The notes under the pieces were generated by a model, which did not search any database, was not told the origin of the DNA, and was given only the letters and a program-made list of their open reading frames with translations. This document shows, piece by piece, positions 1,901-25,204 of a stretch of DNA of 64,000 nt. How positions within the stretch are numbered: position 1 is the first letter of the stretch; each line of letters starts with the position of its first letter. Source of the stretch: Callorhinchus milii (taxonomy: Eukaryota); NCBI RefSeq assembly GCF_018977255.1, contig NW_024704743.1:13642001-13706000 (forward strand), given 5' to 3'. The translations under genes and the position numbers were made by a program.

Positions 1901-3589
1901 ACATCTATATATATTTGATACTGGCACATCCTTGTCCTAGTGACTGGTTTGCCTCGCCAAGTCTTGCTGATGTGCCAGCTGGCTATATCATGCAAGGATT
2001 ATTAAAGTCACTCCACTTTACGATATATCCTGTGAAGCGCTTCTTGCTTTCCAAAGGACAGTCAGTATGAGCCTAGATGAAACTAAAATAGTTCCATGAT
2101 TAAATAAAACCTTTGAAACTCTTCTAAATGGACACCAGAACAAAGTTCTTCTATTCTGCTGCCATGAAAATATAGCCTTTGGACATGTAGTCGAAACAAG
2201 AACAATCAGGTGAAAGCTTGCACTTTAAATGACCAAGGCTTTCCATTTTTCCAGTAACGTGCTATAATTTGTCAAGTTTAAACACTATAGATTTGTTTTC
2301 AATATAGAACAAAGGTCATTTGCATGCATGATATAATGTGTAGTTTACATGGTCGGAAGCTGTGATACATCATAGCTTAGCTACGCAGGCTTCCTCAGAG
2401 CCAATCCAACCTCAAGAAGAAGTTCTCTCTTCATCAACCAGTTAAGGCTACGTGAGCCCAAAGGGATTTGAGGCTGCAACAATCTGGTCTCTTGTGTTTG
2501 CTCAACTGATTGAATCATGCAAAATGTTGCACTTCAGCTAATAAATGATAAATTAAATTTAATATAGATAAATGTAAGGACCAAAAGGTTGTGGGTTCTA
2601 GTCCTATATGAAAACTTCACAAGAGTGGTTCAAATTAAGAAATCCTTTAATTTGGCTGGATTTTATTGTTCCAGAATACCCACCCTACTTTCTTCCTAAT
2701 CCAGTAAATAGCATCAATCACTAGGTGTTGATTACTCTCCAAGTAATGAAAAACTGTCTGATGTTTGTATTAAACTTGCCCTTCAAAACCCTTGACCAGT
2801 CTCCTCTTGTCCTACTTCTTGGTCTACCTGAAAGTATTGTTCAGGATTTACTTTCTTTATCTCATTTAACATTGTGTAAATCTCTAAACATTTCTTTTTG
2901 AGGTTGAAGAGCCCTAATTATCCCTCATGAAAATCATAATCAAGTAACACTTCAGGGCAAATAGAGAACAAATTGTTGCAAGTCCAGTCTTTTGGGTGAG
3001 ATGTTAAACCAAAATATCTGCCAGATTGGGTGATTTAGGTAGCCATTGAAGATCAATGCCCTGAAGAGCAGTCATGGGAAACATAGGAACATCTGCTGGA
3101 CCAGAATACACTAGTCAATCTGGCTAGATCCACCTTCAAATGTCATCTCGACTTTTCTTGCTTACATCCAAATTCCCCTTTTCCAAATCAAAAAGTTACG
3201 CAATCACCTCTTGAAACTGCACACATTAATTGCTTGAATATCTGAGTCTTGGTCAATACTCTCTCATGTTAATTCACGTGAATCATTTCCATTGTTGTTT
3301 GTGGGATACTGTGGGTGCAGATTTGCCTACATTCCAGTTACTACATTTCAAATTAACATTGTCTAAAGAATTTTGAATTGATTCAACTGAATAATGTTCT
3401 ATAATAATTATAATTATTAAGTAGATACCATTGCAATTTCTGTGAGAGATTAGAAACAAACAACCTTGATGTAAGATTAACCAAACCACCACATGATGGC
3501 AGGCTGCATCCAACAAGCATCAGAAACGGTGTTAAGAACAATTAGTAAAAACAATAAACAACAAACCACATTTATATCCATTCAGAAAC

Positions 3590-3611
3590 TCTTTAATTCC
3601 ATAGCTTTATT
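3590..3611 (-). terminator. Candidate MCUR1 polyadenylation signals (AATAAA at 3611-3606, ATTAAA just downstream)
   Basis: Hexamers about 480 nt after the stop in an AT-rich 3' UTR, followed by a GT/T-rich tract on the minus strand. Confidence 0.5.
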
Positions 3612-4092
3612 ATAATCATTTGAATCTTTCAATCTCATCCGTTAACTTTGGGTAAATTACTGACAAATGTGAACGTATTTTCTTTATCAGTGTTTAACTT
3701 AAAACCAGCAGCATTCCCTTTACAGCCACCATGCTGAACCACCTACCTCACACTGTGAACAGGATGACATTAACTGGTCGTCACACTATTTAATTATTTC
3801 TTGAGTAAATATATTTCTTGGTAAAAAAAATTGCAAAAAATGTGTTAAATTAAACAATACAAATTTAAAGTCACATTCCTCAATATGAGTGAATTATTAC
3901 ATTTAAAAACAGTTGATATGTGTTATAATAGCTTCATTGAATTACATCATCAATCTATATATATTTCTTGATTTCTTTAAGGCATCCAGTGCACTTCAAA
4001 TGAAATGGATCCATTAAATATTTACACGTAACCACCACTGAAGTACATGCTTCAAGAGAGAATATTGAGATCCATTAGCAGGAATATGTGTT

Positions 4093-4148
4093 TCACATCC
4101 AGACACGGTAAAATCCAAGCGCTATTGTAAGGCATGTGAAAACTGAAC
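4093..4148 (-). CDS. MCUR1: MCUR1 exon 9, coding part (TM anchor and stop)
   Basis: ttatag|GT TCA GTT ... ATG TGA; encodes (G)[17 protein letters not shown]. Confidence 0.96.
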
Positions 4149-7100
4149 CTATAAAGGAATATTCAGCGATAAGAAAACAGTAACAAGTGAGTTTATTCTG
4201 TTAAACATTTTAAGATGCAACTCTTGGGTAAAATAATCAAGCACTTATCTTAACAATAAAAATGTTTGGATTGCAAAACTGATAATATTGATAAGAATTA
4301 CTTTTATACAACAGTCAGGTGGTGACAGATAAATCTGACAAATCAGTCCATGGTTAGATTCAGTTTTTAGCCACTGTAAAAAACTATTGTGCCAAAAAAT
4401 GTTGGGGCTTGATTTCAATTCAATCCAAAGTTTCAGTATCTGCAATGCCTTTAGCACAGTATTTGCTCTAAAAATGTTACAAACAAATCATATCTTTATG
4501 CAGAAAGTTATTTACCCCATTTACATATAGGCGAGTATGTGTATTCGCTGACCAATAATTAAATAACATCCATTTTTAATTTGTTAATTGCTGGTTTCTT
4601 ACCTGCTAAATACTTTATTGTGTCAAGTTTATGTGACTCTAGCAAGGTTTTGAGTCCTGCTACTTCAGTCTCTATTTTCCGATCTGTCTGAGTCACGGCA
4701 CGTTCTTGTTGTGAATTCTGAAGAGTAAACAAAAGCTGAATTCAAACTGTTAAAAATGATAGCATCAGGGTTTAAAAAAGGCAATAGAGCAGCCACAATG
4801 CTACACTTTTAATATTTCACTTTAGCAGATGATGATCTCCCTATTAAATCACAAGCATCTAAACAAGATTACTTTTTGGAGCTGAACTTGTTTTATGATC
4901 TTGTCATTTGAAATTGCACCATATCACATTGTTGAAACATCTCAACATGTTTCACAGGATTTTTACACTGTGCTCAACAATATCACAAACAGCCTTGAAG
5001 TGAATAACCTATTTTATCTGTTTATATATTTAACCACACACCTAAAATTAGAGGGAATAGATTTCCACACACAAATTAATTTATTACAGGGAATACAACC
5101 TTAAATAGGGAGAAAAACAATATTTTGCTGTACTGACACTTGCACTGAGGTTCCCTCTCCAAAACATTTAGATAAATCTGATTTAAATGTTTTCATGCAG
5201 AGACTTATTGGAACATGGAAAGCTTTGATACAAAAATTTGGTTACAAAAATTAAGCTCAAATATCTTAAAACAAATTGGATAATTATTTGAAGAAAAGCA
5301 ATATTAATGTATATGGGAGGAAATAAATTAGGAAAAGATATAGCTCCAGTGAGGGAGGGAGCACCAGAAGAGGCTCCATGGGCTGAATTGCATTGTTCTG
5401 TGCTATAAACTTCTGAGGCTGCAGTATGACTTCAGCAGATTGACCCAGCAGTGCACAACAGCCCTCTTAAATGACTGTGAACTTAACTCTCCTACCTTTC
5501 TAGCTAAATTTGAATAATTGAGGGGGGGGGGGAAGAAAAATTCTTTACCAACTCCACTATTTGTGACCTGGTTTCCAGTAGTCGTTTTTCATGTTCATTG
5601 AACTGAAGAGACAAAATGTCATTTTGTTTATGATTAAAACTACAGCAAAACATCTATAACAAGCATCTTTATTAATACCAATTTATAGGAACTTACAATT
5701 TCTTTAAAGGGCACAAATTACAATAAGCTCAATAGTTTACAATAAACAATTACAATTATGAATAAAATAATGGAGGTGCTGCAGTTTCTAAAAATAAGAT
5801 TTTAGTGGCAATAAACTCTCTGAAACTCTGAATCCATTAGTTTTGAGAATTAAATTGAAGTTAGAATACAATGACTGAATATGGCAATAATATTGCCCAA
5901 TAATTAATATTATCATAATGTGCTGCTGCACATTAAACACCATTAAATATTGAAGTAGAAATGCTGTCAGCCACATTGGAAGCTTCATTAATGGCATGTC
6001 ATCAAATGGTCCTGAACAACCTGCAATCTGGATTCTGCTTCATCCAATAGAAATTGGTCCAACTTCAGCCAGAAAACACTGAAAGCTAAACCAGACACTC
6101 TTCTTAGGCCAAGTAGGCTCTACAGAAAACGATTACTACCCCCTCCCCTAGGTGAACCTGGAGTCCTTAAAATTCAGATCATCTATCCAAGTCATTGTAG
6201 AAAACAATCAACACAGTCCACCCAAAATGCAGACAGGATTTCACCCATTGTTATTTTGCATTACTCACTAACTTAATATCCACTGTAAATCTTACCAAAA
6301 GTATAGACAAAATACTAATAATATTAAAAAGGGTTCAACAAACAACTTCAGGAGATAAAAATGACATAAACCTCTTACCATTTCTTTAACTCTACTCTTA
6401 TCCAAGTTAAGGTCCAGCTTGTTACTTGTAGACAGCTTGTTGACTTCATCCTGTAAGGATTGGAAAGACTAATAAATACAACCTTCATACTCAGTGGCCT
6501 AAAACACATTAAGTCAATTGATAAAGAAGGTGAAGAACGTTGCAGGTATGAGAGTTGGGATTGGGAGAGTTAAGGATGTGGAGATGTTAGGCCAAGCCAG
6601 GTTTAGACTTGTGATGTATATACAGAATTTCATAACAATTTTGATGAGTGAATTGGTGGGAAACTGACATAGTTCATACTCCAATTTCAAAGGGAGCTGA
6701 AGACTTGGCACTGTTCACAACATACACACAAGCATGTTTTGGGGAAAGTTGCAGAAACCCACGACAGAATTAGGCTTCACACTGGTAACTTAGGTTATGT
6801 AATGTATTTGGCGAACATGATTGTGGCAGCCTCACAGATATAGTGCGCAATTCACTGCAATTGGGACAAATTTCAAAGAATGCGAAGTTAGGGAGGAAGT
6901 CCTATCTCCCCCCCATCCTCCAGATCAAATTCAAAATCCTCATTTTCAACTTTAACAACTGTACAATTCGCCTCATCGGTGGGCGAGCTTTCAGCCATTC
7001 TGGAGTTCCTCTGACTCCCTCATTCACCTCACCACATTCAAGGTCCATCTCAATACCTCTCTCTTTGACCGCATTTCCGATCATGTTTTCCCTCCCCACT

Positions 7101-10100
7101 CACCTTAGATTACATCCCTAGCTCTGGTACTCAGCCAGCAGTGTCAAGCTTTTTATTTGAAGGAGGAGGGGTGGGTGGGGGAATGCCTTCCTGATTTGTA
7201 AGTGTAAATTTATATCATATTGTGAAAAGGGGGCTAGGGATAAACCACTCAAGTACAGAAGTATTGATTGTACGAAAAAAATGAAATAATGGACAGTATA
7301 AAATATCTTGAGGCACATAGATGCATCAGAGACAGCCAGCATAACCTAAGGAGTGGGCAGCTGTGCTTAATTGAATTTCTTTGGGAAGTTAGACTGAGTG
7401 AATAGAGGTAAGAAGTTTATGTTACAATGCAGCCCTGTCATAGCACTTCACTATAGCACAAATTCACTTAATAACACGGTGGCACTGTGGACCCAGTTCA
7501 TCGTGCAAGCACGGAGCCAGCCCACTTGGGTCCCTCCCGCCGGTCAGCTTATCACAGTGAATCAGCCAACTTCCAGTTCATTAGGTTGTCATGAATATCA
7601 CTTCCTGTTTTGCAGTGTACATGTACAGCAGGAAGTGATATTAGCAGTGACCTAAATGATCCAGAAGTTGACCATTTTACTTCCTTCACCAAACAAAAGG
7701 TTTAATTCCTGGTAATCAGGTGCCGCTATCAACATTTGTCACCTTCCACATTAAACTGGAAATTACATTGGTGGGACCCAATGACCCAGCAGGTGTTGTG
7801 CACACACAGTCAAGCCCCTTGTTGCACCTTTCTACAATGCAGTTTAGGAATTTATGGATGCCAAACATGACATGTTATTCAAGTTACTAGTACTTTGACT
7901 TCTTGGATTATCATGACAAGTTGGGATATATGTTTTAGTTAAGGTTCTTGGACATGCAACACATTCATATCCCCAAAATACTCTGCTGTCCCCAAGCCTT
8001 GGCTCTTGCCAGCCTGTGCCTTATACTCTCTGAAAATAGATAAGCAGGCTGTGTTCCTCCAGAGAGAGAGTACATATTCAATTCCAATACATGGGATTTC
8101 CATGTGCAGGTTGGATACATGAAATTTTCAGTAGTTTGAATACTCTTAAGCACGCTGATGGGATTTCCACATGCATCATCTACCCAGCTGACCAAAAACA
8201 ATGCAAAACATCAGGCTTTCAATCTGAGTTATCTAATGACAAATAACCATGGAGCAAACCTGTCAAAAGGGCTTACTATTAATTGCTTTTGGAGCTGAAA
8301 CAATTCAATTTTCAGTTTCTGAAAGAAAGAAAATGACCAAATGAACAAAAAGTTTCAGAAGATACAATGAAACTTGAGATCACATGCTTTTTGCAACTTA
8401 AAAACGTTAACATGATTCCAGAAACATCAAGTTTCTATTCAGACTTATTTTGTTCATCCCACTTTGTTAGAAAATTGTCCTATAAAAGGAACAACAACAA
8501 CAAGATTACATTTGTATAGCGCCTTTCAAGTGGGAGAATGTCCCAAGGCGCTGGACAGAGTGCAGCATTTCAGACCCGAGCTGGGGTCAGGGAGGGCGAA
8601 GGGAGGGGAGAAGGGGGGTGGCCGATGGCATGGTCGAAGAGGAGGGTCTTGAGACAGGACTTGAAGGAGGCTAACGAGGGGGCGAGGTGGAGTGATTGGG
8701 GGATGGAATTCCAGAGGGTGGGGGCAGAGGCTCAATGGTGGGGCGGGTGGGTCAGGGGACGTGAAGCAGGCCAGAGCTGGCTGAGTGGAGGGAGTGGGTG
8801 GATTGGTAGGGAGTTAGGACGCAGCCTGTGGACGGAGGAGTTGGGAAGGCCGACAAGCAGGGCGTTTGCATAGTCGAGCCTGGAGGTAATGAAGGCATGA
8901 ACAAGAGTTTCAGCGGCCTGAGGGGTGAAGTAGTGCGGGTCATGGCTTGAATGTGGGGGAGAAAAGACAGTTGAGGGTCGAACAAGACACCCAGGTTCCT
9001 GATGGCTTGGTGAGTTGTAGTGTGCAACCATGGAGGTTGATGTTGCCAGAGCCTGAGGTGCTGAGGCACTGGCGTGAGCCAATCAGGAGGGTGGAGGGTG
9101 GAGGCAGAAAGATAGAGTTGAGTGTCATCTACATACATATGGAAGTTGACCCCATGTCTGCGGATGATGTCACCAAGGGGGAGCATTTAGATATTAAAGA
9201 GGAGAGGGCCAAGGACAGAGCCCTGGGCGACGCCAGATGTGACAGTGTGGGGGCTGGAGGAAAAACCGTTAGAGGCAACACAGTGGAGACGGTGAGAGAG
9301 ATAGGAATCGAACCAGGCAAGGGCAGATCCGTGAAGATTGAGTAAAGCGGAGTATATGGGGATGGAGTGGTCGACAGTGTCGAAGGTGGCAGAGAGGTCG
9401 AGGAGGACAAGGAGGCAGAGGGAGCCCTGATCACAGATGTTCAGAATGTCATTAGTGACTTTGACCAGGGCTGTTTCCGTGCTGTGGACAGCATGGAAGC
9501 CGGATTAGAGGGGTTCAAAGAGGGAATGGCGAGAGAGAAAGGAGCGGAGCTGGGGCGCAACGTTCCAGGACCTTGGGAGAGGAATGGGAGGTTAGAGATG
9601 GGGCGGTAGCTGGAGAGTAGGGATAGGTCCAGGGAAGGTTTTTTCAAGTTGGGGGTGATGACGGCTGTTTTTAGGGGGGTGGGAACTGAACCGGTGCCAA
9701 GGAGAGGTTGATGACATCGGACAGGAGAGGGGCCAGAAGATGGAGCTGGGAGACGAGGAGAGACGTGGGGATGGGTTCGAGGGAGCAGGTGGTGGGTTTG
9801 AGTTTGTGGACAGTCGTGGTGAGGGAGGAGGGAGAGATAGGGTCGAAGGAGTATAGGGGAGGTTGGGTGGGGGTGGGTCATGAGGGAGAGGTCATGTGGG
9901 GGTGGCTGTGGACGGGGCTGAGGTGGCTGAATGTATCCCCTCGGTTTTAGATTTGAGGAAGTCCAGCATCTCCTCAGTTGGAGTTTGAGGAATGGATGGG
10001 CGAGGTATGGGAAGGTAAACGGAGGAGACGGTTAGTGGTGAAAAAGAGAAGACTGGGGTTGTTCTTTGCCTTCAAGATAACCTTGGAGTCGAAGGAGGAT

Positions 10101-13100
10101 TTGGCGGAGGCAAGAGTGCATCGGTAGATCTTGGTGTGGTGAAGCCAAATCTGCCAATGGACCGTTAGTTTGGATTTGGTCCAGGCCCGTTTGGCAGCTC
10201 GGACTTGTGCCTTGAGGGAACGGAGATGGCTGGTGTACCGGGGATTTACGGAAGTATGAGGCAGTTCGGAAGCTGAGGGGGGCAAGTGAGTCCAGAATGG
10301 AGAGGGAGTTGTGCAGAAAGGAGAGTGAGGAGGGGAGATCAGTCAGTGAGGGCCAGAGGTGTAGGAGTTCAGATGACTCCAGGGCAGTGGAGAGGGAGAG
10401 GGAGGAAATTTTTTTCCATGGACAGTATGTAATGATGGAGGGAACTTAAACAGTCACACTCAGTTACAGTACAACATACAAAACACATCCCAATCTCGTC
10501 ATGCTTAGTCTAAGGATGAATAGTGGTGCAAACGTCTTTGAAACAGGACTACGTTAGCAAATGAGTATCTGATCTTTTATTAAACCAACAACAAACTTTA
10601 GATAGGAGAAAACATACTCTATACATTGACCTAATATAAATATGTGAATCTGCTTTTCAGAATATTAAAAAAGGATCTGCTCTATCAGGTAAAAAAAAAT
10701 CACTAATAAATAGCTTTGTCCATTTTTAAACCCTTTCTGAGAGGCAAGTTCTGTTAACAATGGTTTGATTCTATTTAGGAGAATTCAGCGATCCGTTACA
10801 TTGGGCTAATTAATCCACATTAAAAGTCTTTGCCTATAATGCAGCCTCTTGCTCTATCCATGTCAGGCCTTTCTCAGATTTGATTCTAATATTTATTTTC
10901 ATCTCCAGAGACGCCAGTATTTTAGAGCACCTTGACAACTCTTCCAGCTTCAAGCTATGATCTCACCTCATTCTCTGCTCGTAATGCTGAGAATTCACTC
11001 TTTTCTAAGATAATCATGTCCTTTTTCACTCCGGCTATTTGTGACATTATCTGCTGAAGCATTATCTCCTGCAATTAAATTACAATGGTTACCATTTCAG
11101 AATAATTTACAACAGTACTATTCCAATAACGAATTAAGAAAAGCTGTACTGTTGTAATGTACCATATTCTAAGAAGTATTTTGAACAAATAAGTGTAATT
11201 TAGAAATTTAAATACAAAATTTGCACTAACACAGTTGAACCCTTGCGTACGTGCCTTGGTATAGTCCTGGTCTACGTATAGCACTGGTGCACTATACAAC
11301 CCAGTATATTGGAAGTGGGGTATAATTTCAATGCTGACTGACCTGCTTCCTGCACATAGTGCACAGTTGCGGAAAACCCAGCAACCGCTGGAACAACAAC
11401 AAACATTTATGGAATGCTTTTCACGTCGAGAGGACGTCCCAAAGCGCTGAACAGTCAGGTGTCAGGGCCCGAGCATGGGGGAGGAGTGGTGTAGGCATGA
11501 GCGAAGGCTGAGAGGTGGGAGGGCGACCAAAGGCACGATCGAAAGGAAGGGTCTTGAGACTAACCTTGAAGGAGGCAAGAGAGGAAGCGAGGCGAAGGGA
11601 CTGTGGGATGGAGTTCCAGAGTGTGGAGGCAGAGCGGCTGAAAGCCCGGCCACCGATGGTAGGCGGGTCGGGCGGGAGATATGGAGCAGGCTGGAGCCTG
11701 CTGAACGGAGGGAGCGGGCAGATTGGTAGGGAGTTAGCAGGTCAGAGAGGTAGGAGGGGGCAAGGCCATGGATGGCCTTGAAAGTGAGGACGAGGATCTT
11801 AAAATCGATCCACTGAGGGATGGGGAGCCAGTGGAGTCGGGTGAGGGTGGGAGCAATGGGGTTGTGGAGCCTGGTGCACAAGAGTACACAGGCTGCAGAG
11901 TTTTGGATGATCTGTAGCTTGTGAAGGGAAGAGTTGGGAAGGTCGATGAGGAGGGAAGCGCTTGTGAGAGCAGTTGCTGGCTTCCTGTACACATGCACAG
12001 GAAGTCATGTCAGTGGCAACCTGACAGATGGCTATTTTTATAGTGCATAATGGTGTCTGACTGTAAAATGCCAGTTATTACGTTAAATCCACACATCTTA
12101 TATAAAAATGCAGGCATGTTTCTTCCAATATTAAAAATGCACATGCACAGGCAATAATCCTAATAAATCCTAATAAAACATTGTAGTGAGGTAGGAAAAT
12201 ATAAATATTAAAATAGTTATATTGATATGCTGAGAGACACGGGCAACCGACTAAACTACATGACTGCTGTAGCCAGTGCAGGCCACGTGTAGCTGTATGA
12301 TTTGGGCTTTTCCCAGAATATCGTGGAACTATATAGAGGTAATTTGCTCAGATGTCAAGAAGTGGATCTATCAGTTGGTTTTCTGACCTCCATTCCTCCT
12401 TGTTTCAGAGACCACAAGCTTTCGAGGCATTTTGAAAACCTGAGTCATAGTGGAATCGTGCAAATTCCATTTTACTTCCTTCACCAAACAAAAGGTTTAA
12501 TTCCTGGTAATCAGGTGCCGCTATCAACATTTGTCACCTTCCACATTAAACTGGAAATTACATTGGTGGGACCCAATGACCCAGCAGGTGTTGTGCACAC
12601 ACAGTCAAGCCCCTTGTTGCACCTTTCTACAATGCAGTTTAGGAATTTATGGATGCCAAACATGACATGTTATTCAAGTTACTAGTACTTTGACTTCTTG
12701 GATTATCATGACAAGTTGGGATATATGTTTTAGTTAAGGTTCTTGGACATGCAACACATTCATATCCCCAAAATACTCTGCTGTCCCCAAGCCTTGGCTC
12801 TTGCCAGCCTGTGCCTTATACTCTCTGAAAATAGATAAGCAGGCTGTGTTCCTCCAGAGAGAGAGTACATATTCAATTCCAATACATGGGATTTCCATGT
12901 GCAGGTTGGATACATGAAATTTTCAGTAGTTTGAATACTCTTAAGCACGCTGATGGGATTTCCACATGCATCATCTACCCAGCTGACCAAAAACAATGCA
13001 AAACATCAGGCTTTCAATCTGAGTTATCTAATGACAAATAACCATGGAGCAAACCTGTCAAAAGGGCTTACTATTAATTGCTTTTGGAGCTGAAACAATT

Positions 13101-16100
13101 CAATTTTCAGTTTCTGAAAGAAAGAAAATGACCAAATGAACAAAAAGTTTCAGAAGATACAATGAAACTTGAGATCACATGCTTTTTGCAACTTAAAAAC
13201 GTTAACATGATTCCAGAAACATCAAGTTTCTATTCAGACTTATTTTGTTCATCCCACTTTGTTAGAAAATTGTCCTATAAAAGGAACAACAACAACAAGA
13301 TTACATTTGTATAGCGCCTTTCAAGTGGGAGAATGTCCCAAGGCGCTGGACAGAGTGCAGCATTTCAGACCCGAGCTGGGGTCAGGGAGGGCGAAGGGAG
13401 GGGAGAAGGGGGGTGGCCGATGGCATGGTCGAAGAGGAGGGTCTTGAGACAGGACTTGAAGGAGGCTAACGAGGGGGCGAGGTGGAGTGATTGGGGGATG
13501 GAATTCCAGAGGGTGGGGGCAGAGGCTCAATGGTGGGGCGGGTGGGTCAGGGGACGTGAAGCAGGCCAGAGCTGGCTGAGTGGAGGGAGTGGGTGGATTG
13601 GTAGGGAGTTAGGACGCAGCCTGTGGACGGAGGAGTTGGGAAGGCCGACAAGCAGGGCGTTTGCATAGTCGAGCCTGGAGGTAATGAAGGCATGAACAAG
13701 AGTTTCAGCGGCCTGAGGGGTGAAGTAGTGCGGGTCATGGCTTGAATGTGGGGGAGAAAAGACAGTTGAGGGTCGAACAAGACACCCAGGTTCCTGATGG
13801 CTTGGTGAGTTGTAGTGTGCAACCATGGAGGTTGATGTTGCCAGAGCCTGAGGTGCTGAGGCACTGGCGTGAGCCAATCAGGAGGGTGGAGGGTGGAGGC
13901 AGAAAGATAGAGTTGAGTGTCATCTACATACATATGGAAGTTGACCCCATGTCTGCGGATGATGTCACCAAGGGGGAGCATTTAGATATTAAAGAGGAGA
14001 GGGCCAAGGACAGAGCCCTGGGCGACGCCAGATGTGACAGTGTGGGGGCTGGAGGAAAAACCGTTAGAGGCAACACAGTGGAGACGGTGAGAGAGATAGG
14101 AATCGAACCAGGCAAGGGCAGATCCGTGAAGATTGAGTAAAGCGGAGTATATGGGGATGGAGTGGTCGACAGTGTCGAAGGTGGCAGAGAGGTCGAGGAG
14201 GACAAGGAGGCAGAGGGAGCCCTGATCACAGATGTTCAGAATGTCATTAGTGACTTTGACCAGGGCTGTTTCCGTGCTGTGGACAGCATGGAAGCCGGAT
14301 TAGAGGGGTTCAAAGAGGGAATGGCGAGAGAGAAAGGAGCGGAGCTGGGGCGCAACGTTCCAGGACCTTGGGAGAGGAATGGGAGGTTAGAGATGGGGCG
14401 GTAGCTGGAGAGTAGGGATAGGTCCAGGGAAGGTTTTTTCAAGTTGGGGGTGATGACGGCTGTTTTTAGGGGGGTGGGAACTGAACCGGTGCCAAGGAGA
14501 GGTTGATGACATCGGACAGGAGAGGGGCCAGAAGATGGAGCTGGGAGACGAGGAGAGACGTGGGGATGGGTTCGAGGGAGCAGGTGGTGGGTTTGAGTTT
14601 GTGGACAGTCGTGGTGAGGGAGGAGGGAGAGATAGGGTCGAAGGAGTATAGGGGAGGTTGGGTGGGGGTGGGTCATGAGGGAGAGGTCATGTGGGGGTGG
14701 CTGTGGACGGGGCTGAGGTGGCTGAATGTATCCCCTCGGTTTTAGATTTGAGGAAGTCCAGCATCTCCTCAGTTGGAGTTTGAGGAATGGATGGGCGAGG
14801 TATGGGAAGGTAAACGGAGGAGACGGTTAGTGGTGAAAAAGAGAAGACTGGGGTTGTTCTTTGCCTTCAAGATAACCTTGGAGTCGAAGGAGGATTTGGC
14901 GGAGGCAAGAGTGCATCGGTAGATCTTGGTGTGGTGAAGCCAAATCTGCCAATGGACCGTTAGTTTGGATTTGGTCCAGGCCCGTTTGGCAGCTCGGACT
15001 TGTGCCTTGAGGGAACGGAGATGGCTGGTGTACCGGGGATTTACGGAAGTATGAGGCAGTTCGGAAGCTGAGGGGGGCAAGTGAGTCCAGAATGGAGAGG
15101 GAGTTGTGCAGAAAGGAGAGTGAGGAGGGGAGATCAGTCAGTGAGGGCCAGAGGTGTAGGAGTTCAGATGACTCCAGGGCAGTGGAGAGGGAGAGGGAGG
15201 AAATTTTTTTCCATGGACAGTATGTAATGATGGAGGGAACTTAAACAGTCACACTCAGTTACAGTACAACATACAAAACACATCCCAATCTCGTCATGCT
15301 TAGTCTAAGGATGAATAGTGGTGCAAACGTCTTTGAAACAGGACTACGTTAGCAAATGAGTATCTGATCTTTTATTAAACCAACAACAAACTTTAGATAG
15401 GAGAAAACATACTCTATACATTGACCTAATATAAATATGTGAATCTGCTTTTCAGAATATTAAAAAAGGATCTGCTCTATCAGGTAAAAAAAAATCACTA
15501 ATAAATAGCTTTGTCCATTTTTAAACCCTTTCTGAGAGGCAAGTTCTGTTAACAATGGTTTGATTCTATTTAGGAGAATTCAGCGATCCGTTACATTGGG
15601 CTAATTAATCCACATTAAAAGTCTTTGCCTATAATGCAGCCTCTTGCTCTATCCATGTCAGGCCTTTCTCAGATTTGATTCTAATATTTATTTTCATCTC
15701 CAGAGACGCCAGTATTTTAGAGCACCTTGACAACTCTTCCAGCTTCAAGCTATGATCTCACCTCATTCTCTGCTCGTAATGCTGAGAATTCACTCTTTTC
15801 TAAGATAATCATGTCCTTTTTCACTCCGGCTATTTGTGACATTATCTGCTGAAGCATTATCTCCTGCAATTAAATTACAATGGTTACCATTTCAGAATAA
15901 TTTACAACAGTACTATTCCAATAACGAATTAAGAAAAGCTGTACTGTTGTAATGTACCATATTCTAAGAAGTATTTTGAACAAATAAGTGTAATTTAGAA
16001 ATTTAAATACAAAATTTGCACTAACACAGTTGAACCCTTGCGTACGTGCCTTGGTATAGTCCTGGTCTACGTATAGCACTGGTGCACTATACAACCCAGT

Positions 16101-19100
16101 ATATTGGAAGTGGGGTATAATTTCAATGCTGACTGACCTGCTTCCTGCACATAGTGCACAGTTGCGGAAAACCCAGCAACCGCTGGAACAACAACAAACA
16201 TTTATGGAATGCTTTTCACGTCGAGAGGACGTCCCAAAGCGCTGAACAGTCAGGTGTCAGGGCCCGAGCATGGGGGAGGAGTGGTGTAGGCATGAGCGAA
16301 GGCTGAGAGGTGGGAGGGCGACCAAAGGCACGATCGAAAGGAAGGGTCTTGAGACTAACCTTGAAGGAGGCAAGAGAGGAAGCGAGGCGAAGGGACTGTG
16401 GGATGGAGTTCCAGAGTGTGGAGGCAGAGCGGCTGAAAGCCCGGCCACCGATGGTAGGCGGGTCGGGCGGGAGATATGGAGCAGGCTGGAGCCTGCTGAA
16501 CGGAGGGAGCGGGCAGATTGGTAGGGAGTTAGCAGGTCAGAGAGGTAGGAGGGGGCAAGGCCATGGATGGCCTTGAAAGTGAGGACGAGGATCTTAAAAT
16601 CGATCCACTGAGGGATGGGGAGCCAGTGGAGTCGGGTGAGGGTGGGAGCAATGGGGTTGTGGAGCCTGGTGCACAAGAGTACACAGGCTGCAGAGTTTTG
16701 GATGATCTGTAGCTTGTGAAGGGAAGAGTTGGGAAGGTCGATGAGGAGGGAAGCGCTTGTGAGAGCAGTTGCTGGCTTCCTGTACACATGCACAGGAAGT
16801 CATGTCAGTGGCAACCTGACAGATGGCTATTTTTATAGTGCATAATGGTGTCTGACTGTAAAATGCCAGTTATTACGTTAAATCCACACATCTTATATAA
16901 AAATGCAGGCATGTTTCTTCCAATATTAAAAATGCACATGCACAGGCAATAATCCTAATAAATCCTAATAAAACATTGTAGTGAGGTAGGAAAATATAAA
17001 TATTAAAATAGTTATATTGATATGCTGAGAGACACGGGCAACCGACTAAACTACATGACTGCTGTAGCCAGTGCAGGCCACGTGTAGCTGTATGATTTGG
17101 GCTTTTCCCAGAATATCGTGGAACTATATAGAGGTAATTTGCTCAGATGTCAAGAAGTGGATCTATCAGTTGGTTTTCTGACCTCCATTCCTCCTTGTTT
17201 CAGAGACCACAAGCTTTCGAGGCATTTTGAAAACCTGAGTCATAGTGGAATCGTGCAAATTCCAGAACTTTACTTTAACAGGTACTTACTGCACATACTC
17301 AGAATAAGATCTGGGCAAAGCAGCAGCTGGGTACCATTGCATTCCTCATCAGTGCGGTTTTCTTGAAGTAAATTAAAGCACACAACACCTGCCAATCAAT
17401 TACATTCACATGATGATTACAGAGTCATCAAGCAGAATAGGGGATGTACCCCAAAAAACCTTTACTCTCACTCAGAGGATCTATTAAACATGAGTTTTTC
17501 ATCCATAAAAGTTTTTCTTTTAAAAAGACTGAGGAAAAATCTACATACGACTTTTGTTCCCTTTCATCAGGTAGAAGTTAATTGGATATTGTAAATGTGC
17601 AGAAGTAACTTGAAGGTGTTATCTCACCAAAGGGTTCATACAACTTTCATAAACGGAGTATCTCATTCTTGTCATTTACTGGGATCTTTGAACTCTGTTT
17701 CGAATTGTAGAGCAAGAGTGTTTTTTTTTTACTTGTGTTGCCTTACCTGTTGAACTTTGGTCACCATATCCTTATAAATCATTTGCATATTAGAATTCAT
17801 GATCTTCAGCAATGCAGCTACCACAACCTCTGATTGATCAGTGCTGAGGCCTATGCAAAAGACAGCAACAAAACTCAAATTACACACTAGATTCTGTTTT
17901 AAAGAGGTAGAAAAATACAACGGGAGCAAATTAAACAATGCCTATTCAAAAATGAGGAGATTTACAACTCAGGAATTGCAAGTCTTCCATCCCAACTACC
18001 AAAAAACACAGTCAATTCACTTTACAATATATTCTGTGAAGCGTTTTGAAACTTCACAACAAAGTGATAAGGCGCTGTATCAAATGCAAGGATTATTATT
18101 ATTACGAATAAAAACTCATGTTGAAATTGGAGGATTTGGACACATACCTGTACATCTTTCTGTAAAAAAATTGGAGGATTGAGATGGACCTTGAAGGAGG
18201 CGAGGGAAGGGGTAAGGCAGAGGGATTTTGGGATGGAGTTCCAGGGCACGGGGATAGACAGGCTGAAAGCCTGACCATCAAATGATGAGGCAAGCAGGGT
18301 GGGGGAACGTGAATCAGGCTGCCGAGTGAAGATTAGTAGGGTTTTAGAAGGTGGCAGAGATAGGGTGTGGTAAGACCATGGAGGGATTTGAAAGTGAGGA
18401 TAAGGAGCTTGAACTCCATTCTCTGGGGGATGGGGAGGCAGTCTACCCAAGCAAGAATAGGAGTAATAGGCGTGTGGAGTTTCGTGCATGAGAGCACAGA
18501 AGCTGCAGAGTTCTGGATGGTCTGCAGCTTGTGGAAGCAAGAATTGGAAAGTCCGGTGAGAGTTGTCGTAATCCAGCCTGGACGTGTTAAAAGCATCCCT
18601 CAAAAATGAAAGGAATTGCCGTCAATGGTTTTTGGGGAAAGAATTTATCACATACAATTGAATTTCTCCAACTACAGTACTATGATTAGGTTTTATAAAT
18701 GAGTGGAACAATATTCCCACTATTGTATGATAGAATTATATCCTTACTCAGTGAACAGCTATGAAGTAGAATTCTGCTATTATTTACAGAACTGCAGCCT
18801 TTCCCTCATTTACACCAACATAAAATGATGGAACATTGATAGATTAACTATTACTTTATCCAACATGAAATGTAAATTATTCTCAGCCTTAGGACTTCAA
18901 TCACAAGATTAAATATAAAACTGAGTGAGCAAAGTTTTGACTCCTCCTGAAGATGACTCAGTGAGGAATGGGCAGCTAACTGAGGGGTTAAACTCTGCAT
19001 CTTCCAGTTAAATCAGAGTTCTGAAAATAGCTGGTTATATTTGATATATTTAACAGATCAAACGCAATGATGTATTATTCCATAGCTTCTGGTTGAAAGG

Positions 19101-22100
19101 CTGTTAGAATACAATTGACACTTATATAGTGCATATCAGGAGGACATCCCAAAGCACTTAACAATTCTGGCTGGGCACCAGAGCTGAAGCAGGGTTGGGT
19201 GAGGAGGGGAAGGAATGATGGAAAGCATAGTCAAAGAGGTATGTTTTGAAGAATACCTTGAAAGGGGGAAGGGGGAGGAGGGACCTGAGAATGGAGTTCC
19301 AGAGATCAGGCACCAAGTGGCTAAAAGCCCGGCTGCCAATGTGAGGCGGATAGAACGGAGAATGTGGAATAAGTGGAGTCCTGTAGCTCAGTGGTTAGAG
19401 CACTCGCTTTGCAAGTGAGAGAGACATGAGTTCAATTCCAGGCAGGGCGAAACCTTGGGCAAGTTTCCTTACTCCACACGCCTAATAATAATCCCTCCAA
19501 AAAACCAAAAACAATAATTAAATTGGTCATTTTCAATCTACGACTGTTTGTGGGACATTGCTGTGCGCAATTGGCTGCCGCGTTCGCCCACAAATATACA
19601 GTCAATTCACTTTACAGTGTGTTCTGTGAAGCGCTTTGGGACGTCTAGAAGACGTGAAAAGCGCTATATCAAATGCAAGGATTATTATTATAAGCTGGTG
19701 TCGGCTCAGGTAAGGAAACATCTGGGTTGGTAAGGGTGAAGGAGGTTGCAAAGCTAGAGTGGGACAAAACTATTAAATTTAACCGTTAGAACAAGGATCT
19801 TGAAATCGATCCATTGGTAGATGGGGAGTTAGTGGAGCCGTGCAAGAATGGGGTGATAGGCCTACGGAACCTACTGCAGGAGAACACAGGCTGCAAATTT
19901 CAGTTTGTAGCCTGTGCAGGGAAGAACTGCAGAGCCCAGCAAGCAGAGCATTTGGAAAGTCTAGTATGCATGTGATGAATGCCTACATGAGGAAACTCGA
20001 AGGCTTGGTGTGGCAACTGCTGGAAGGTGTTACCCTGGAGTCCAATAGGCCTTTTATGAACCTGAACACCTGGCTTGCAGAGAGGCATGCAGATGCTGCT
20101 CAAGCTCTGCACCTCCAACTGGTGGAACCATCGCTCAATGTGAAGGGATGTGTGCTCGAGCTATGGGCAGGAAGATGGTGGCAATGTTCTCACACATTTC
20201 ATGCTGAGCTGTGTTGCCCACCAGGAAGTTCACAGGGAGCTCAAACCCATGCTCGTCAGATGTAAATGACCAACTGGTGACTATCTTCCTTGAGCAGTGA
20301 GTGGGAGGCGGGGAAGAGGTAAGCAAGATCTCATTGGAGCTGACCTGGCTCCAAGGCAACATGTTTGGCAAAGAAATGTTAAAATCGAGCCCACCCTCTG
20401 TGGCAGTATCGGTAGCCCAGTTACTAAACCAGGCAGATTCGTAGTACTCTAGGGCACTTCTGATGAGAGGATAGACAGGCTGCCTCATCGGCGGCAGACC
20501 AGTCACTGGAGCACAGACTGTTTTCACTCAGCTCCAGTTAACTGCGCAAGCTAAAGCCCTAACAGATAGGGTATATCTGCTATATCAAGCAGTAGGAAAG
20601 CTTGCTAGGCAGTACTCTCAGTGGCAAGCTATGCGGTTTTAGCTGGTTAGACTCCAGCAGTACCCCAATACACACTCTAGGTCCCCAAGCTTTGGCTCTT
20701 GCCAATCTGTGTCTAATAATTTCCGGAATTAGGTCAGCAGGTTGCGTCCCTCCAGATAGAGAATGAGCATTCCATTCCAATAAAATCTCTAGAATTTGCA
20801 TGTATAGGTGGGATGCATCGAAATTTATTTGGTTATTCTTAAGCATGGTGATAGGGTTACACAGGTGTCACGAGACACTTGGCTGACCAAGAAACATATT
20901 GACTGTCATCAATGTTATGTTGAAATGGCCTTTTTATGAGAAGCACAATGTTTTCATCCCTTCCTTCTAGTTACAAGTTTCACTCCCACGACTGCCTCTC
21001 TGTCACTCAGTCTCACCTATCAATTTCAGTCACTTTTGTCACAATGACTTTGCCAGTCAGACCTTTCCATTTGACAACAAGTAACCTCCATGGAGAATAT
21101 AAAATGAAAATTGGAATTAAAAGTAAACCCACCACTTTACTTACCATTTTCTTCTAGTAGTCGCACTACTGCATGAGTATCAAAGTAAAATTTTTGAATC
21201 TCCGATGGCAACAGGTCTACTTTTCTCAAATCATACTGCAAGCATACTGTTGACGTGCTCAGCTCTGAAATAAATGATGCAAGATTATCACCAGAAGAAA
21301 AACAAGAAACTTAAAAAACTTTCATTATAAATGATTGTTGAGCTATCACAGAAAATTGGGTAAATAAAAGAGAAAAAAAGTAGAATGCCATCAGAATAGG
21401 TAACTTCTGCAGGGAGCTCATAATCATGGGATCAAATAGCGTTCCTATTTATCATGAACTTTCTATGCTTTTAATACACATTTTAAACTGCATGAAAATC
21501 TCCACTACATATATCTGTTGTGGAGAAGAGTAAGGAGAGAATCTAAAAAATAACATCATTTATGAAAAGACATTTGACTGAGTCCTGTAGCTCAGTGGTT
21601 AGAGCATTCGCTTTGTAAGCGAGAGACCTGGGTTTGATTGCCAGTAGGGTGAAACCATGGGCAAGTTTCCTTACTCCACACGCCTGATAATAATCTCTCA
21701 AGAAAACAAAACACTAATAAATTGATCACTTCAAACCATGACTGTTTGTGGGACACTGCTGTGCGCAACTGACTGCTACATTTTGCCCATAAATATACAG
21801 TCTATTCTGTGAAGTGCTTTGAGACATCATGAAGACATGAAAAGCGCTATATCAAATGCAAGGATTATTATTATTATTCAGTCAAATTATGGTTTCAGAT
21901 GTTATTCCATGTGAAGGATGCCATATGAATCACCACCCACCTCCGCTCACTGAAGAGCCAGGTGCGGGCCTGCCTCAAATCTGGCCTAACGGTCCACCGA
22001 CAAATCTGGCTGGACCTCCTCAAAATCTACCGCTCCACTCTAGCCTCGGCCAAGTCGTCCTTCTACTCCAACTCCTCCAACCTTCACTGCGAGGAGATGC

Positions 22101-25100
22101 TGGATTTCCTTGAATCCAAAATCAAGCGAATCTGCTCCGCGGTCACTCCCCCTCCAACTTCCACCCACCCCCCACCCCTTCCCTCCCACACTCCGACTCC
22201 TACCCATCCTCCCCTACACACCTTCGTACCCATTTCCCCATCCTCTGTCACCAAACTCATCCTGTCCCTGAAACGCACCACCTGCTCCCTTGACCCCATT
22301 CCCACTCCACTCCTTATCTCTCAGCTCCACCTCTTTGCCCCACTTATCACAGACATTATCACCCTCTCCTCTGGCTCTGTTCCCATTCCCCTAAAAACTG
22401 CCAACATCACTCCCACTTTGAAAAAACCCTCCCTTGATGCATCGCAGCTATCACACTACCGGCCCATCTCCAACCTCCCCTTCCTGTCCAAGGTCCTTGA
22501 AAGAGTTGTCACCTCCCAGCTGCGCTCTTTCCTCTCCACCCATTCATTATTCGAACCCCTTCAGTCGGGTTTCCGTGCTGCCCATAGCACAGAAACCGCT
22601 CTGGTCAAGGTCACCAATGACATCTTGACCATCTGCGACCAGGGTTCCCTCTGCCTCCTCGACTTATCGGCAGCATTCGATACGGTCGACCATGCTGTCC
22701 TCCTCCACCGCTTGTCCTCCCACCTCAACCTTCAAGGCCCTGTCCTTGAGTGGTTTAGGTCGTATCCCTCCCACCGTCTTCATTTTATTTCCACAAACAG
22801 CTTTTCCTCCGGCCCCCGCACTGTCTTGTGCGGTGTCCCTCAGGGCTCTGTCCTCGGTCCCCTCCTCTTCACCCTCTATATGCTCCCCCTGTGGTGACAT
22901 CATCCGCAGACATGGGGTTAACTTCCACATGTATGCGGATGACACCCAACTCTACCTTTCCTCCTCTACCCTCAACTCCACGACCACCGATGTCCTGACA
23001 GCTGCCTGTCCGACATCGAGTCCTGGACGAGAGACAACTTTCTTCAGCTCAACGTGCGCAAAACTGAGGCCCTCCTGATTGGCTCACGTCAGCGCCTCCG
23101 CACCTCAGGCGCTGACACCATCAGCATCCAAGGCTGCACTCTCCACCTCTCAAAGCCAATCAGGAACCTCGGCGTTTTGTTCGACCCTGAGCTGTCCTTT
23201 CTCCCTCACATCCGCACCACAACTGGCACCGCCTTCCATCACCTCCGGAACATCGCCAGACTACGGCACTACCTCACCCCTCACGCGGCTGAAACCCTGG
23301 TTCACGCCTTTATCACCTCAAGGCTGGACTATGGGAACTCTCTCCTCGCCGGCCTTCCCGCCACCTCCCTCCACAAGCTGCAGGTCATTCAGAACTCTGC
23401 AGCTCGTGTACTGTCCCGCACCAGGCTTCGGGACCACATCACTCCCACCCTCGCTCGCCTCCACTGGCTCCCCATCCCCCAGAGGATCGAATTCAAGATC
23501 CTCATCCTCACCTACAAGGCCATTCACGGCCTTGCTCCCTCCTACCTCTCCAACCTACTATCCCCTACCTACCTGCCCGTACCCTCCGTTCCTCTGGCTC
23601 CGGTCTGCTCCACATCCCCCGCCCCAACCGCCCTACCATCGGTGGCCGGGCCTTCAGCCTCTCAGCCCCGAGGCTCTGGAACTCTATCCCCCAGTGCCTT
23701 CGCCGCCTCCTCCCTTTCCTCCTTCAAGGCCGGTCTCAAGACCTTTCTCTTTGACCGAGCCTTCAGCTCCCCTCTCGACTCTCTTCCCCCTCCTCGCTCT
23801 CTCCCTTCCCTCCCCTCACCCTGACCATTTCCCCCCTCCTCGCTCCCTCCCTTCCCTCCCTCACCCTGACCATTTCCCCCCCAATGCTCGGGTCCCGACC
23901 CAACTGTCCAGTGCCTTGGGACGTCCTCCCGACGTGAAAGGCGCTCTATAAATGTAATCTTGTTGTTGTATCTTGTTGTAAATGCAAGTTGTTGGCATTA
24001 TCTAATTTGCCATTAAACACGATGATGATAGAGCTGCACATTCCGAGAAAGTGAAACTGAACAACTGTATTTAGCATGTGACAGTGTCAATTTATGTCAG
24101 TCTTTTGGAAGCATTTTTCCAATTAAATTTAAGATTCTATCAACCTCCAAATGCTATGACTGACATTTCTGTTTGTTGCCCCAAACACCTGCTAGAAAGT
24201 GTGTGAGTGAGTTGAATAGTCTGTTAATGCTCACTCATGAAGCCCACACTTGTAAAATAGCCACTTGGACAAATGCTGCGAGAGACACAGTCAAACACCG
24301 TGCTATACATACATATACATACATAATAATAATAATAATAATCCTTGCATTTGATATAGCGCTTTTCACGTTGGGAGGACGTCCCAAAGCGCTTCACAGA
24401 ACACACTGTAAAGTGAATTGACTGTATATTTGTGGGCAAACATACAGTATACAGTGCTATACATACATATACACACATACAGTGCTATACATACATACAC
24501 ACAGACACAGTGATATACATACATACATACATACATACATACATACATACATACATACATACATACATACATACATACATACATACATACATACATACAT
24601 ACATACATACATACATACATACATACATACATACATACATACATACATACATACATACATACATACATACATACATACATACATACATACATACATACAT
24701 ACATACATACATACATACATACATACATACATACATACATACATACATACATACATACATACATACATACATACATACATACATACATACATACATACAT
24801 ACATACATACATACATACATACATACATACATACATACAGACACAGTGATATACACACATACACACAGACACAGTGATATACACACATACACACAGACAC
24901 AGTGATATACACACATACACACAGACACAGTGATATACACACATATACACACACACACAGTCTCACCCCTGGCGGGCGCCCTGCCCTTGCCATTAGCTCC
25001 TGTCCAGTCGGCAGTGTCCGGGCTGCCGTCACGCAGCCGCGCTGAGGTCGAGCCCCACTGACAGCGAAAACCTGAAGCGGATGAAGCAGTGACCCTCCGG

Positions 25101-25204
25101 CTTCCCCGCGAGGCGAGGAATCGGCAGCAGCCGCGGCCCGGCCCCGGGCGGCCCCCGAGCCTCGCCACCGCGGAGCCCACACCGACCGCGACCGCCCGGC
25201 TCAT
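4093..25204 (-). CDS. MCUR1: Mitochondrial calcium uniporter regulator 1, whole gene span (9 canonical exons, exons 4-5 present twice); 300 aa with one copy, 348 aa with both
   Basis: Manually spliced exons with GT-AG sites and consistent phases: 238+120+104+102+42+72+54+115+56 = 903 nt. Translation includes [66 protein letters not shown] and the C-terminal anchor [18 protein letters not shown], matching recalled MCUR1 better than CCDC90B. Confidence 0.95.
4603..4717 (-). CDS. MCUR1: MCUR1 exon 8 (115 nt)
   Basis: cttcag|...|gtaaga; encodes [38 protein letters not shown](G). Confidence 0.96.
5549..5602 (-). CDS. MCUR1: MCUR1 exon 7 (54 nt)
   Basis: cttcag|...|gtaaag; encodes [18 protein letters not shown]. 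Confidence 0.9.
6379..6450 (-). CDS. MCUR1: MCUR1 exon 6 (72 nt)
   Basis: ttacag|...|gtaaga; encodes [24 protein letters not shown]. Confidence 0.93.
7567..7670. repeat. Imperfect inverted repeat (hairpin), probably the centre of a palindromic MITE-like element (about 7420-7790)
   Basis: Left arm caacttccagttcattaggttgtcatgaatatcacttcctg pairs with right arm caggaagtgatattagcagtgacctaaatgatccagaagttg; 14-bp perfect core. An outer pair ttgggtccc/gggacccaa lies at about 7526/7773. Confidence 0.75.
7962..8200 (+). mobile_element. RTE-like LINE 3' fragment (duplicated at 12757-12995)
   Basis: Homologous to 20660-20895 and to the reverse complement of 50243-50480; ends cagctgaccaaaaa. Confidence 0.65.
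8277..8318 (-). CDS. MCUR1: MCUR1 exon 5, copy B (duplicate)
   Basis: Same sequence as 13072-13113 at offset 4795; splice sites intact. Confidence 0.9.
8490..10440 (-). mobile_element. L2 LINE, 5'-truncated and degenerate (duplicated at 13285-15235)
   Basis: RT motifs ([40 protein letters not shown]) and (TTG)n tail. Confidence 0.92.
10967..11068 (-). CDS. MCUR1: MCUR1 exon 4, copy B (duplicate)
   Basis: Same sequence as 15762-15863 at offset 4795; splice sites intact. Confidence 0.9.
11391..11960 (-). mobile_element. L2 LINE 3' fragment (duplicated at 16186-16755)
   Basis: LQIIQNSAA...[30 protein letters not shown] plus tail. Confidence 0.92.
13072..13113 (-). CDS. MCUR1: MCUR1 exon 5, copy A (42 nt)
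   Basis: ttctttctttcag|...|gtaagc; encodes [14 protein letters not shown]; phase 0/0. Confidence 0.9.
15762..15863 (-). CDS. MCUR1: MCUR1 exon 4, copy A (102 nt)
   Basis: tgcag|...|gtgaga; encodes [34 protein letters not shown]; phase 0/0. Confidence 0.93.
17747..17850 (-). CDS. MCUR1: MCUR1 exon 3 (104 nt)
   Basis: catag|...|gtaagg; encodes (G)[34 protein letters not shown]. Confidence 0.95.
18000..18595. mobile_element. SINE 3' tail (+, 18000-18103) beside an L2 3' fragment (-, 18180-18595)
   Basis: cagtcaattcactttac...gattattatt; [13 protein letters not shown]...[14 protein letters not shown]. Confidence 0.8.
19110..19985 (-). mobile_element. Old L2 3' fragment interrupted by a SINE
   Basis: L2 tail at about 19110-19160; ttgaaatcgatccattgg...gggag matches the WLP..RIDFK region. 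Confidence 0.7.
19376..19691 (+). mobile_element. Full-length tRNA(Ala)-like SINE, short variant
   Basis: A box TAGCTCAGTGG, B box GAGTTCAATTCC, L2-type tail gtgaagcgctttgggacgtc...aatgcaaggattattatt. Confidence 0.9.
19988..20895 (+). mobile_element. RTE-like LINE, about 900-bp 3' portion
   Basis: Colinear with the reverse complement of 50243-51125; ends ggctgaccaagaaa. Confidence 0.7.
21145..21264 (-). CDS. MCUR1: MCUR1 exon 2 (120 nt)
   Basis: tttcag|...|gtaagt; encodes [41 protein letters not shown] (head-domain FDTH motif). Confidence 0.95.
21580..21878 (+). mobile_element. tRNA-derived SINE, short variant
   Basis: Same head and tail as 19376-19691. Confidence 0.9.
21932..23980 (+). 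mobile_element. Young L2 LINE, 5'-truncated, a few frameshifts
   Basis: ORFs 21962-22897 and 23054-23824 carry [36 protein letters not shown] and NLGVLFD; YADD lies in the frameshifted part between them; (TTG)n tail. Confidence 0.97.
24296..24960. repeat. Compound repeat in MCUR1 intron 1: about 28-bp minisatellite containing (TACA)81 (24516-24839) and a SINE tail (-, 24325-24441)
   Basis: Unit acagtgatatacacacatacacacagac repeated on both sides of a pure TACA array. Confidence 0.95.
24967..25204 (-). CDS. MCUR1: MCUR1 exon 1 (79 aa + 1 nt; Arg/Gly/Ser-rich, presequence-like)
   Basis: ATG at 25204 with an in-frame TGA five codons upstream. Ends AGG G|gtgag; joining to exon 2 gives R-E-L-S, as in MCUR1 RELSLS. 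Lies in the CpG island. Confidence 0.85.

Follow-up and report, generated by a model that had tools for sequence, protein, structure and literature searches.

An exact tandem repeat of MCUR1 exons 4 and 5 in the assembled genome of Callorhinchus milii is not a feature of the species

The stretch of DNA analysed here (the window) comprises 64,000 nucleotides of the elephant shark Callorhinchus milii (NCBI RefSeq assembly GCF_018977255.1, contig NW_024704743.1, positions 13,642,001 to 13,706,000 of the forward strand) and holds a nine-exon gene, MCUR1, which runs on the minus strand from 25204 to 4093 with canonical splice ends and whose exons 4 and 5 lie inside a repeated unit (Table 1). Judged by its sequence the gene is an ordinary MCUR1. 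Its product matches the PF07798 (DUF1640) profile with 215.8 bits (cut-off 33.5), in two stretches because of the repeat; residues 88-194 match the head of CCDC90B (PDB 6H9M) in a phmmer search (E 7.5e-20), and a search with exon 8 puts proteins annotated as Callorhinchus milii MCUR1 at the top. With human CCDC90B, of which the head and neck have been solved (6H9M), it shares the head, an MVTK neck, a coiled-coil stalk and a hydrophobic C-terminal anchor. The MVTK sequence motif lies at residues 148-151 (T150 and K151 are invariant in 24 aligned proteins) and represents the beta-layer neck motif, for which the consensus aliphatic-A-T-K has been given (PMC4786415); it is encoded by exon 3 and so is not duplicated. 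The C-terminus is hydrophobic and conserved in the alignment, as would suit a membrane anchor. The gene identity, exon numbering and family architecture proposed in an earlier examination of the letters alone (the sequence-only reading) agree with these matches.

That reading described a 4795-bp head-to-tail unit carrying exons 4 and 5, and every coordinate checked was correct. By self-BLAST and direct comparison, 7672-12469 and 12467-17264 form a direct tandem repeat with a period of 4795 and neither a difference nor a gap over 4798 bases, which is far beyond chance; the introns are as identical between the copies as the exons (100%). The repeat has the same three bases, CCA, at its left boundary, at its right end and at the junction between the copies. 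Neither breakpoint has a repeat match, the nearest repeats being 315 and 513 bases away, and the window is free of N bases, hence there are none at or between the copies. The MCUR1 locus occurs once in the assembly with no alternative haplotig elsewhere, an observation that is neutral between a real allele and an artefact. These results confirm the assembled sequence; that an animal carries the repeat in its DNA is an inference.

The coding consequences had also been read correctly. All boundaries are in phase 0 from where exon 3 ends up to where exon 7 ends, all copies of exons 4 and 5 have AG/GT ends, and the repeat creates a hybrid intron that joins the intron-5 donor to the intron-3 acceptor. 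Translation of the combinations 4-5, 4-5-5, 4-4-5 and 4-5-4-5 gives 300, 314, 334 and 348 amino acids, respectively, without internal stops.

Table 1. Coordinates of the repeated unit and of the MCUR1 exons, numbered from the first letter of the window.
Feature	Positions	Strand	Description	Basis
Copy A of the 4795-bp unit	7672-12469		Downstream copy in the MCUR1 direction	No difference from copy B in 4798 bases
Copy B of the 4795-bp unit	12467-17264		Upstream copy in the MCUR1 direction	Identity to copy A
Duplication junction	12467-12469		3-base microhomology CCA; breakpoints in non-repetitive DNA; imperfect similarity around both	
Exon 1, coding part	24967-25204	-	79 amino acids	Matches XP_042188317.1
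Exon 2	21145-21264	-	Start of the head domain	Gene model and head homology
Exon 3	17747-17850	-	Encodes the head and the MVTK beta-layer neck; not within the repeat	
Exon 4, first copy	15762-15863	-	102 nt, 34 amino acids, phase 0-0	
Exon 5, first copy	13072-13113	-	42 nt, 14 amino acids, phase 0-0	
Hybrid intron (predicted)	11069-13071	-	2003 nt; made of the first part of intron 5 and the last part of intron 3; both splice sites intact	
Exon 4, second copy	10967-11068	-	102 nt	Exon 4-exon 5 joint in run X7
Exon 5, second copy	8277-8318	-	42 nt	Exon 5-exon 6 joint in runs X1 and X7
Exon 6	6379-6450	-	24 amino acids	Joints in runs X1 and X7
Exon 7	5549-5602	-	18 amino acids	Joints in runs X1 and X7
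Exon 8	4603-4717	-		Joints in runs X1 and X7
Exon 9, coding part	4093-4148	-	Hydrophobic C-terminal anchor and stop	Joint in runs X1 and X7

The junction was sought in public sequencing runs with a query of 181 bases centred on it, 27 of whose 151 31-letter words exist only at the junction, equivalent to about 2.1 of the 12 words sampled. Among the 24 runs listed, five (samples S1-S5, from two studies) contained 10 of the 12 words, two contained 5 (one of them X6) and 17 contained almost none; the full set of 12 was found in none of the 24. Judged by word share, the junction words are missing from runs X2-X4. Four runs (X1, X5, X7 and X11) were compared as contigs with positions 3400-12512. 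A 1308-base contig of X5 matches 11927-12469 and then departs from the reference exactly at 12469, as does a 363-base contig of X1 after matching 12186-12469. The differences listed for these contigs fall outside the query, which identifies the two absent words as those specific to the junction. Had the second copy followed 12469, the X5 contig would have matched 7675-8439; if it continues instead into single-copy flank, its 765 further bases end at 18029, which is 33 bases into a high-copy repeat starting at 17996, where such contigs break. The left boundary at 7672, where the assembly graph of a carrier would branch, is crossed unbroken by contigs of X5 (5536-8011), X1 (6423-8015) and X7 (7270-7816). 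Run X11 yielded repeats only (12 of 30 bins) and is uninformative on the junction. The depth of the X5 contigs is similar in the unit (8.3, 11.3 and 13.3) and in the flank (8.6, 9.4 and 9.9), but it is no measure of copy number and was not counted as evidence.

The samples that could be checked thus show one copy, and the duplication is not a feature of the species. Contigs drop rare variants, intron depth is low in X1 and X7, and the samples are possibly not distinct animals; if S1-S5 represent five animals, its absence from 10 chromosomes sets a 95% upper bound of 26% on the allele frequency, and the two contig-compared samples alone set one of 53%.

None of the runs that the junction query found is recorded as RNA. 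Spliced RNA is nevertheless present in runs X1 and X7 (the RNA type is a guess), as evidenced by joints of exons 5-6, 6-7, 7-8 and 8-9 in both and of exons 4-5 in X7. Among the 15 of 373 joints listed, there was no exon 5-to-exon 4 joint and no transcript of the 4-4-5, 4-5-5 or 4-5-4-5 type. Both samples are apparently without the allele, hence they are uninformative on how a duplicated allele splices. An exon 5-to-exon 4 junction is equally expected from back-splicing of the normal allele and would be ambiguous alone for this reason. Inverted repeats between introns 3 and 5, which would favour a circle of exons 4 and 5, are limited to a 30-base match of 87% and a 12-base match.

The repeat form of the protein is already in the databases as a RefSeq prediction, XP_042188317.1 (C. 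milii MCUR1, 348 amino acids), which is the 4-5-4-5 form with the exon translations of the window. It was apparently predicted from this same assembly and hence is not independent support. In a set of 244 proteins (the best 120 of 549 and the best 120 of 964 hits, plus cluster members) one exon-4 motif occurs in 211, none in 32 (fragments or exon-skipping models) and two in XP_042188317.1, which is also the only member in which a stretch of 10 residues recurs. The six proteins from sharks and rays each have a single copy, and among the matches listed the doubled region is covered at high identity by XP_042188317.1 only (247 bits; next score 175). The comparison with other individuals and related species, which the sequence-only reading had proposed, went against a shared duplication: the junction is missing from the five covering runs and the doubled motif from all proteins of the set except this one. 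No paper naming both Callorhinchus milii and MCUR1 was found in the literature collection searched.

Within the MCUR1/CCDC90 family the assembled gene differs in its neck-to-anchor distance, which would go from the usual 132 residues (124 of 208 measurable proteins) to 180; the next longest, 165 residues, is found in a sheep model. In this sheep MCUR1 model (P0090) the peptides of exons 5 and 6 are separated by 33 additional residues, which do not stem from a duplication. Shorter distances of 114 (13 proteins), 98 (12), 108 (8), 118 (4) and 74 residues (3) match the loss of exon 7, exon 4, exon 6, exon 5 and exons 4 plus 6, respectively; predicted protein models suggest that stalk shortening via skipping of the phase-0 exons 4-7 may be a general feature of vertebrate MCUR1.

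The hydrophobic periodicity of the native stalk has its maximum at 3.63 residues and hardly any power at 3.43-3.5; in the long stalk the maximum is at 3.65. Since 48 residues make 13.2 turns at 3.63 (about 13 turns at 3.69), the insert would stay roughly in helical phase and no hexad is needed. The sequence-only reading had kept the register through six heptads plus a hexad or beta-layer near DMIILEK, an unnecessary construction; a hexad at that site as a requirement is ruled out by the periodicity. The periodicity power at an insert length of 48 is 6.3 (5.4 in the native stalk) in a range of 3.4-7.8 over lengths 42-54, which places this length among the better, not the best; in-phase lengths are common by chance and show no selection. 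A second beta-layer may lie at ILEKSE, which by eye resembles the consensus, and folding of the 348-residue chain is plausible. A predicted model of the 348-residue monomer (mean predicted local distance difference test, pLDDT, 67.9; predicted template modelling score, pTM, 0.28) places helices at 123-258 and 264-347 and a plain helix at the MVTK neck; a monomer cannot show beta-layers or trimer register, and what the model adds is only that the stalk is probably helical.

On a narrow balance of judgement, we consider it probable that the assembled animal carries an intragenic tandem duplication that is private or rare and arose very recently (this weight and those given below are judgements, not computations). 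During replication repair the growing strand would have slipped back by 4.8 kb and re-primed on the 3-base match, with imperfect similarity nearby, by template switching of the kind known as MMBIR (microhomology-mediated break-induced replication) or FoSTeS (fork stalling and template switching), so that exons 4 and 5 were copied once from the same haplotype. The direct tandem orientation, the breakpoints outside repeats and the microhomology are as expected for real microhomology-mediated copy number variants. Repeat-mediated unequal crossover is ruled out, there being no repeat at either breakpoint. Similar arrangements are described for rare, validated intragenic duplications in humans: a 9.2-kb duplication with 3-bp microhomology in EDAR and an intragenic duplication of exons 10-11 in TNNT1 (PMC10899794), and a duplication of exons 2-4 in TRPS1 that shows microhomology and whose novel junction is spanned by RNA reads (PMC6913153). 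They resemble the MCUR1 repeat in the direct tandem arrangement of internal exons, few-kb size, 3-bp microhomology and hybrid intron; in EDAR and TRPS1 the frame is lost or the protein truncated, whereas the MCUR1 repeat keeps the frame and its junction is known from the assembly alone.

Such an event competes with an assembly artefact, which we regard as a serious possibility, if a somewhat less probable one: one consensus stretch would have been written twice, RefSeq would then have annotated a false exon gain, and the animal would make only the 300-residue protein. The sequence-only reading had rightly warned of this. None of the runs covering both sides contains the junction. Possible sources of such an artefact are contigs whose overlap was left unmerged, a gap that was first overfilled and later closed, and a chimeric long read. 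Passages of Ko et al. (PMC9516828) define a homotype false duplication, which the absence of differences fits, and document false exon gains in annotation; the MCUR1 repeat shares with these cases the adjacent identical copies, the extra exons in the NCBI annotation and the absence elsewhere. It differs in having no gap between the copies, a gap being one mark listed in those passages, although a gap in read depth is possible. Gap-closing tools can overfill gaps, according to parts of two other reports (PMC3504050, PMC8848313). The identity of the copies was set against the variation between run X5 and the reference in non-repetitive sequence, which amounts to about 0.19% (at least 4 of 2110 bases in the unit and, in the flank, at least 8 of 4272). 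At this rate about 9 differences are expected where none was seen in 4798 bases, so that the copies come from one haplotype or from one consensus. Two haplotypes written in tandem, the heterotype kind of false duplication, are thereby ruled out, whereas a homotype error is possible; if the duplication is real, its identical copies make it younger than typical alleles.

The position of the breakpoints in unique DNA with microhomology also argues against an artefact, in that microhomology of at least 3 bases arose in 5.9% of 200,000 random joins (about 1 in 17). Of 20,000 random pairs, 1.4-2.5% attained the similarity seen around the two breakpoints, whichever of four window sizes was used; this figure overlaps with the former and is not independent evidence. 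Exact repeats of at least 200 bases whose copies lie near each other are represented by only one other case in 1,014 kb (the window plus 950 kb of this genome), and a second gap-free exact tandem repeat was not found in the 950 kb outside the window, sampled on four contigs, so that such repeats do not abound in the assembly. Together with the lack of a gap between the copies, these observations favour a real duplication. Several points weigh on the opposite side. Were the allele neutral, one sighting in a chromosome would as a rule be matched by others among about 10 more; its absence there means that a real duplication would have to be under negative selection or of very recent origin. Each of two older C. 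milii models (P0001 and P0002) has one exon 4. Identical copies can also result from polishing or from a wrong join, and local similarity may likewise be preferred by wrong joins. About 160 kb left of the repeat, moreover, an exact 519-base duplicate with a period of 3378 has its second copy directly after a run of 25 N; it looks man-made and is probably an unmerged overlap at a gap, an indication that the assembly can write a sequence twice. Runs of 25 N may be the mark that one gap-filling tool leaves at overfilled gaps, although this one could also stand for a withheld stretch.

The sequence-only reading had gone further, to an allele with a splice-variable, longer stalk that tunes the distance between the MCU-binding head and the membrane. 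As a common or fixed allele this is very improbable. All exon combinations are in frame, the helical phase is roughly kept and a 348-residue RefSeq model exists; in addition, parts of two reviews state that the head of human MCUR1 binds MCU (PMC6801532, PMC8224590), and one that stalk length seems important for the MCU interaction (PMC8224590). The junction words, however, occur in none of the five samples covering both sides (two of them confirmed by contigs), in the RNA contigs of X1 and X7 the exons follow one another in the usual order, the relatives are single-copy and the RefSeq model is not independent. The fixed version is largely refuted. Neither did a usable splice-variable stalk find backing in the transcripts among the joints listed. 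As regards an evolved tandem exon duplication, the introns have not diverged, so that selection has had no time to act, and the arrangement is absent across the samples of the species and its relatives; an evolved stalk-length switch is unsupported on any evidence obtained.

Under the preferred reading of a rare, recent duplication, constitutive 3-4-5-4-5-6 splicing into the 348-residue chain is the most likely outcome, predicted as the default because of the phase-0 exons, the intact sites and the 2003-nt hybrid intron; the 334- and 314-residue forms would need exon skipping, of which none was seen. The stalk would be longer by 48 residues, or about 7 nm at 1.5 Å per residue (36% more than 132). 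MCUR1 forms a complex with CCDC90B according to part of a recent preprint, in which its role is still debated between MCU regulator and general scaffold (bioRxiv 10.1101/2025.10.14.682030). Next to shorter partners, a chain with 48 extra residues would have to loop out or mis-pair, for which reason a neutral or mildly harmful allele is likelier than an evolved switch. It is rather unlikely that all steps hold at once, namely a real, low-frequency allele that is spliced 4-5-4-5 and yields a stable MCUR1 with an in-phase stalk about 7 nm longer.

The significance of these results is mostly that of a correction. The 348-residue RefSeq MCUR1 is not to be taken as the species-typical form of the elephant shark; the evidence points to a protein of 300 amino acids with one exon 4-5 pair, and this is the form to be used in comparative work on early vertebrates. 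If the duplication is true and expressed, it would constitute a small natural experiment on stalk length, testing whether MCU binding is set by how far the head sits from the membrane, and whether long chains form mixed oligomers with short ones or with CCDC90B; the same experiment is feasible with a construct.

Some further observations concern the gene and its neighbourhood. The older models P0001 and P0002 are devoid of the exon-5 peptide, even though exon 5 is joined to exon 6 in X1 and X7; the annotation behind these models may have a gap here or be mis-predicted. In the alignment, exon 1 (25204-24967, minus strand; 79 amino acids) has no counterpart of the leucine-rich stretch near the N-terminus of many mammalian MCUR1 proteins, and its donor adjoins about 500 bases of AC/ATAC simple repeat (24437-24959) that begin 8 bases inside intron 1. 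Upstream of MCUR1 an intronless open reading frame of 254 amino acids (30837-31601, minus strand) is placed by a protein atlas with an RGS9-binding protein (score 0.97, TM 0.85), and Pfam gave only a sub-threshold syntaxin-like match. An open frame of 564 amino acids at 39699-41393 (plus strand) resembles by eye the reverse transcriptase of a long interspersed nuclear element (LINE). A copy of this frame, 92.7% identical, lies inside MCUR1 intron 1 (22156-23842, plus strand), and shorter relatives occur inside the duplicated unit at 8487-10397 and 11392-11956.

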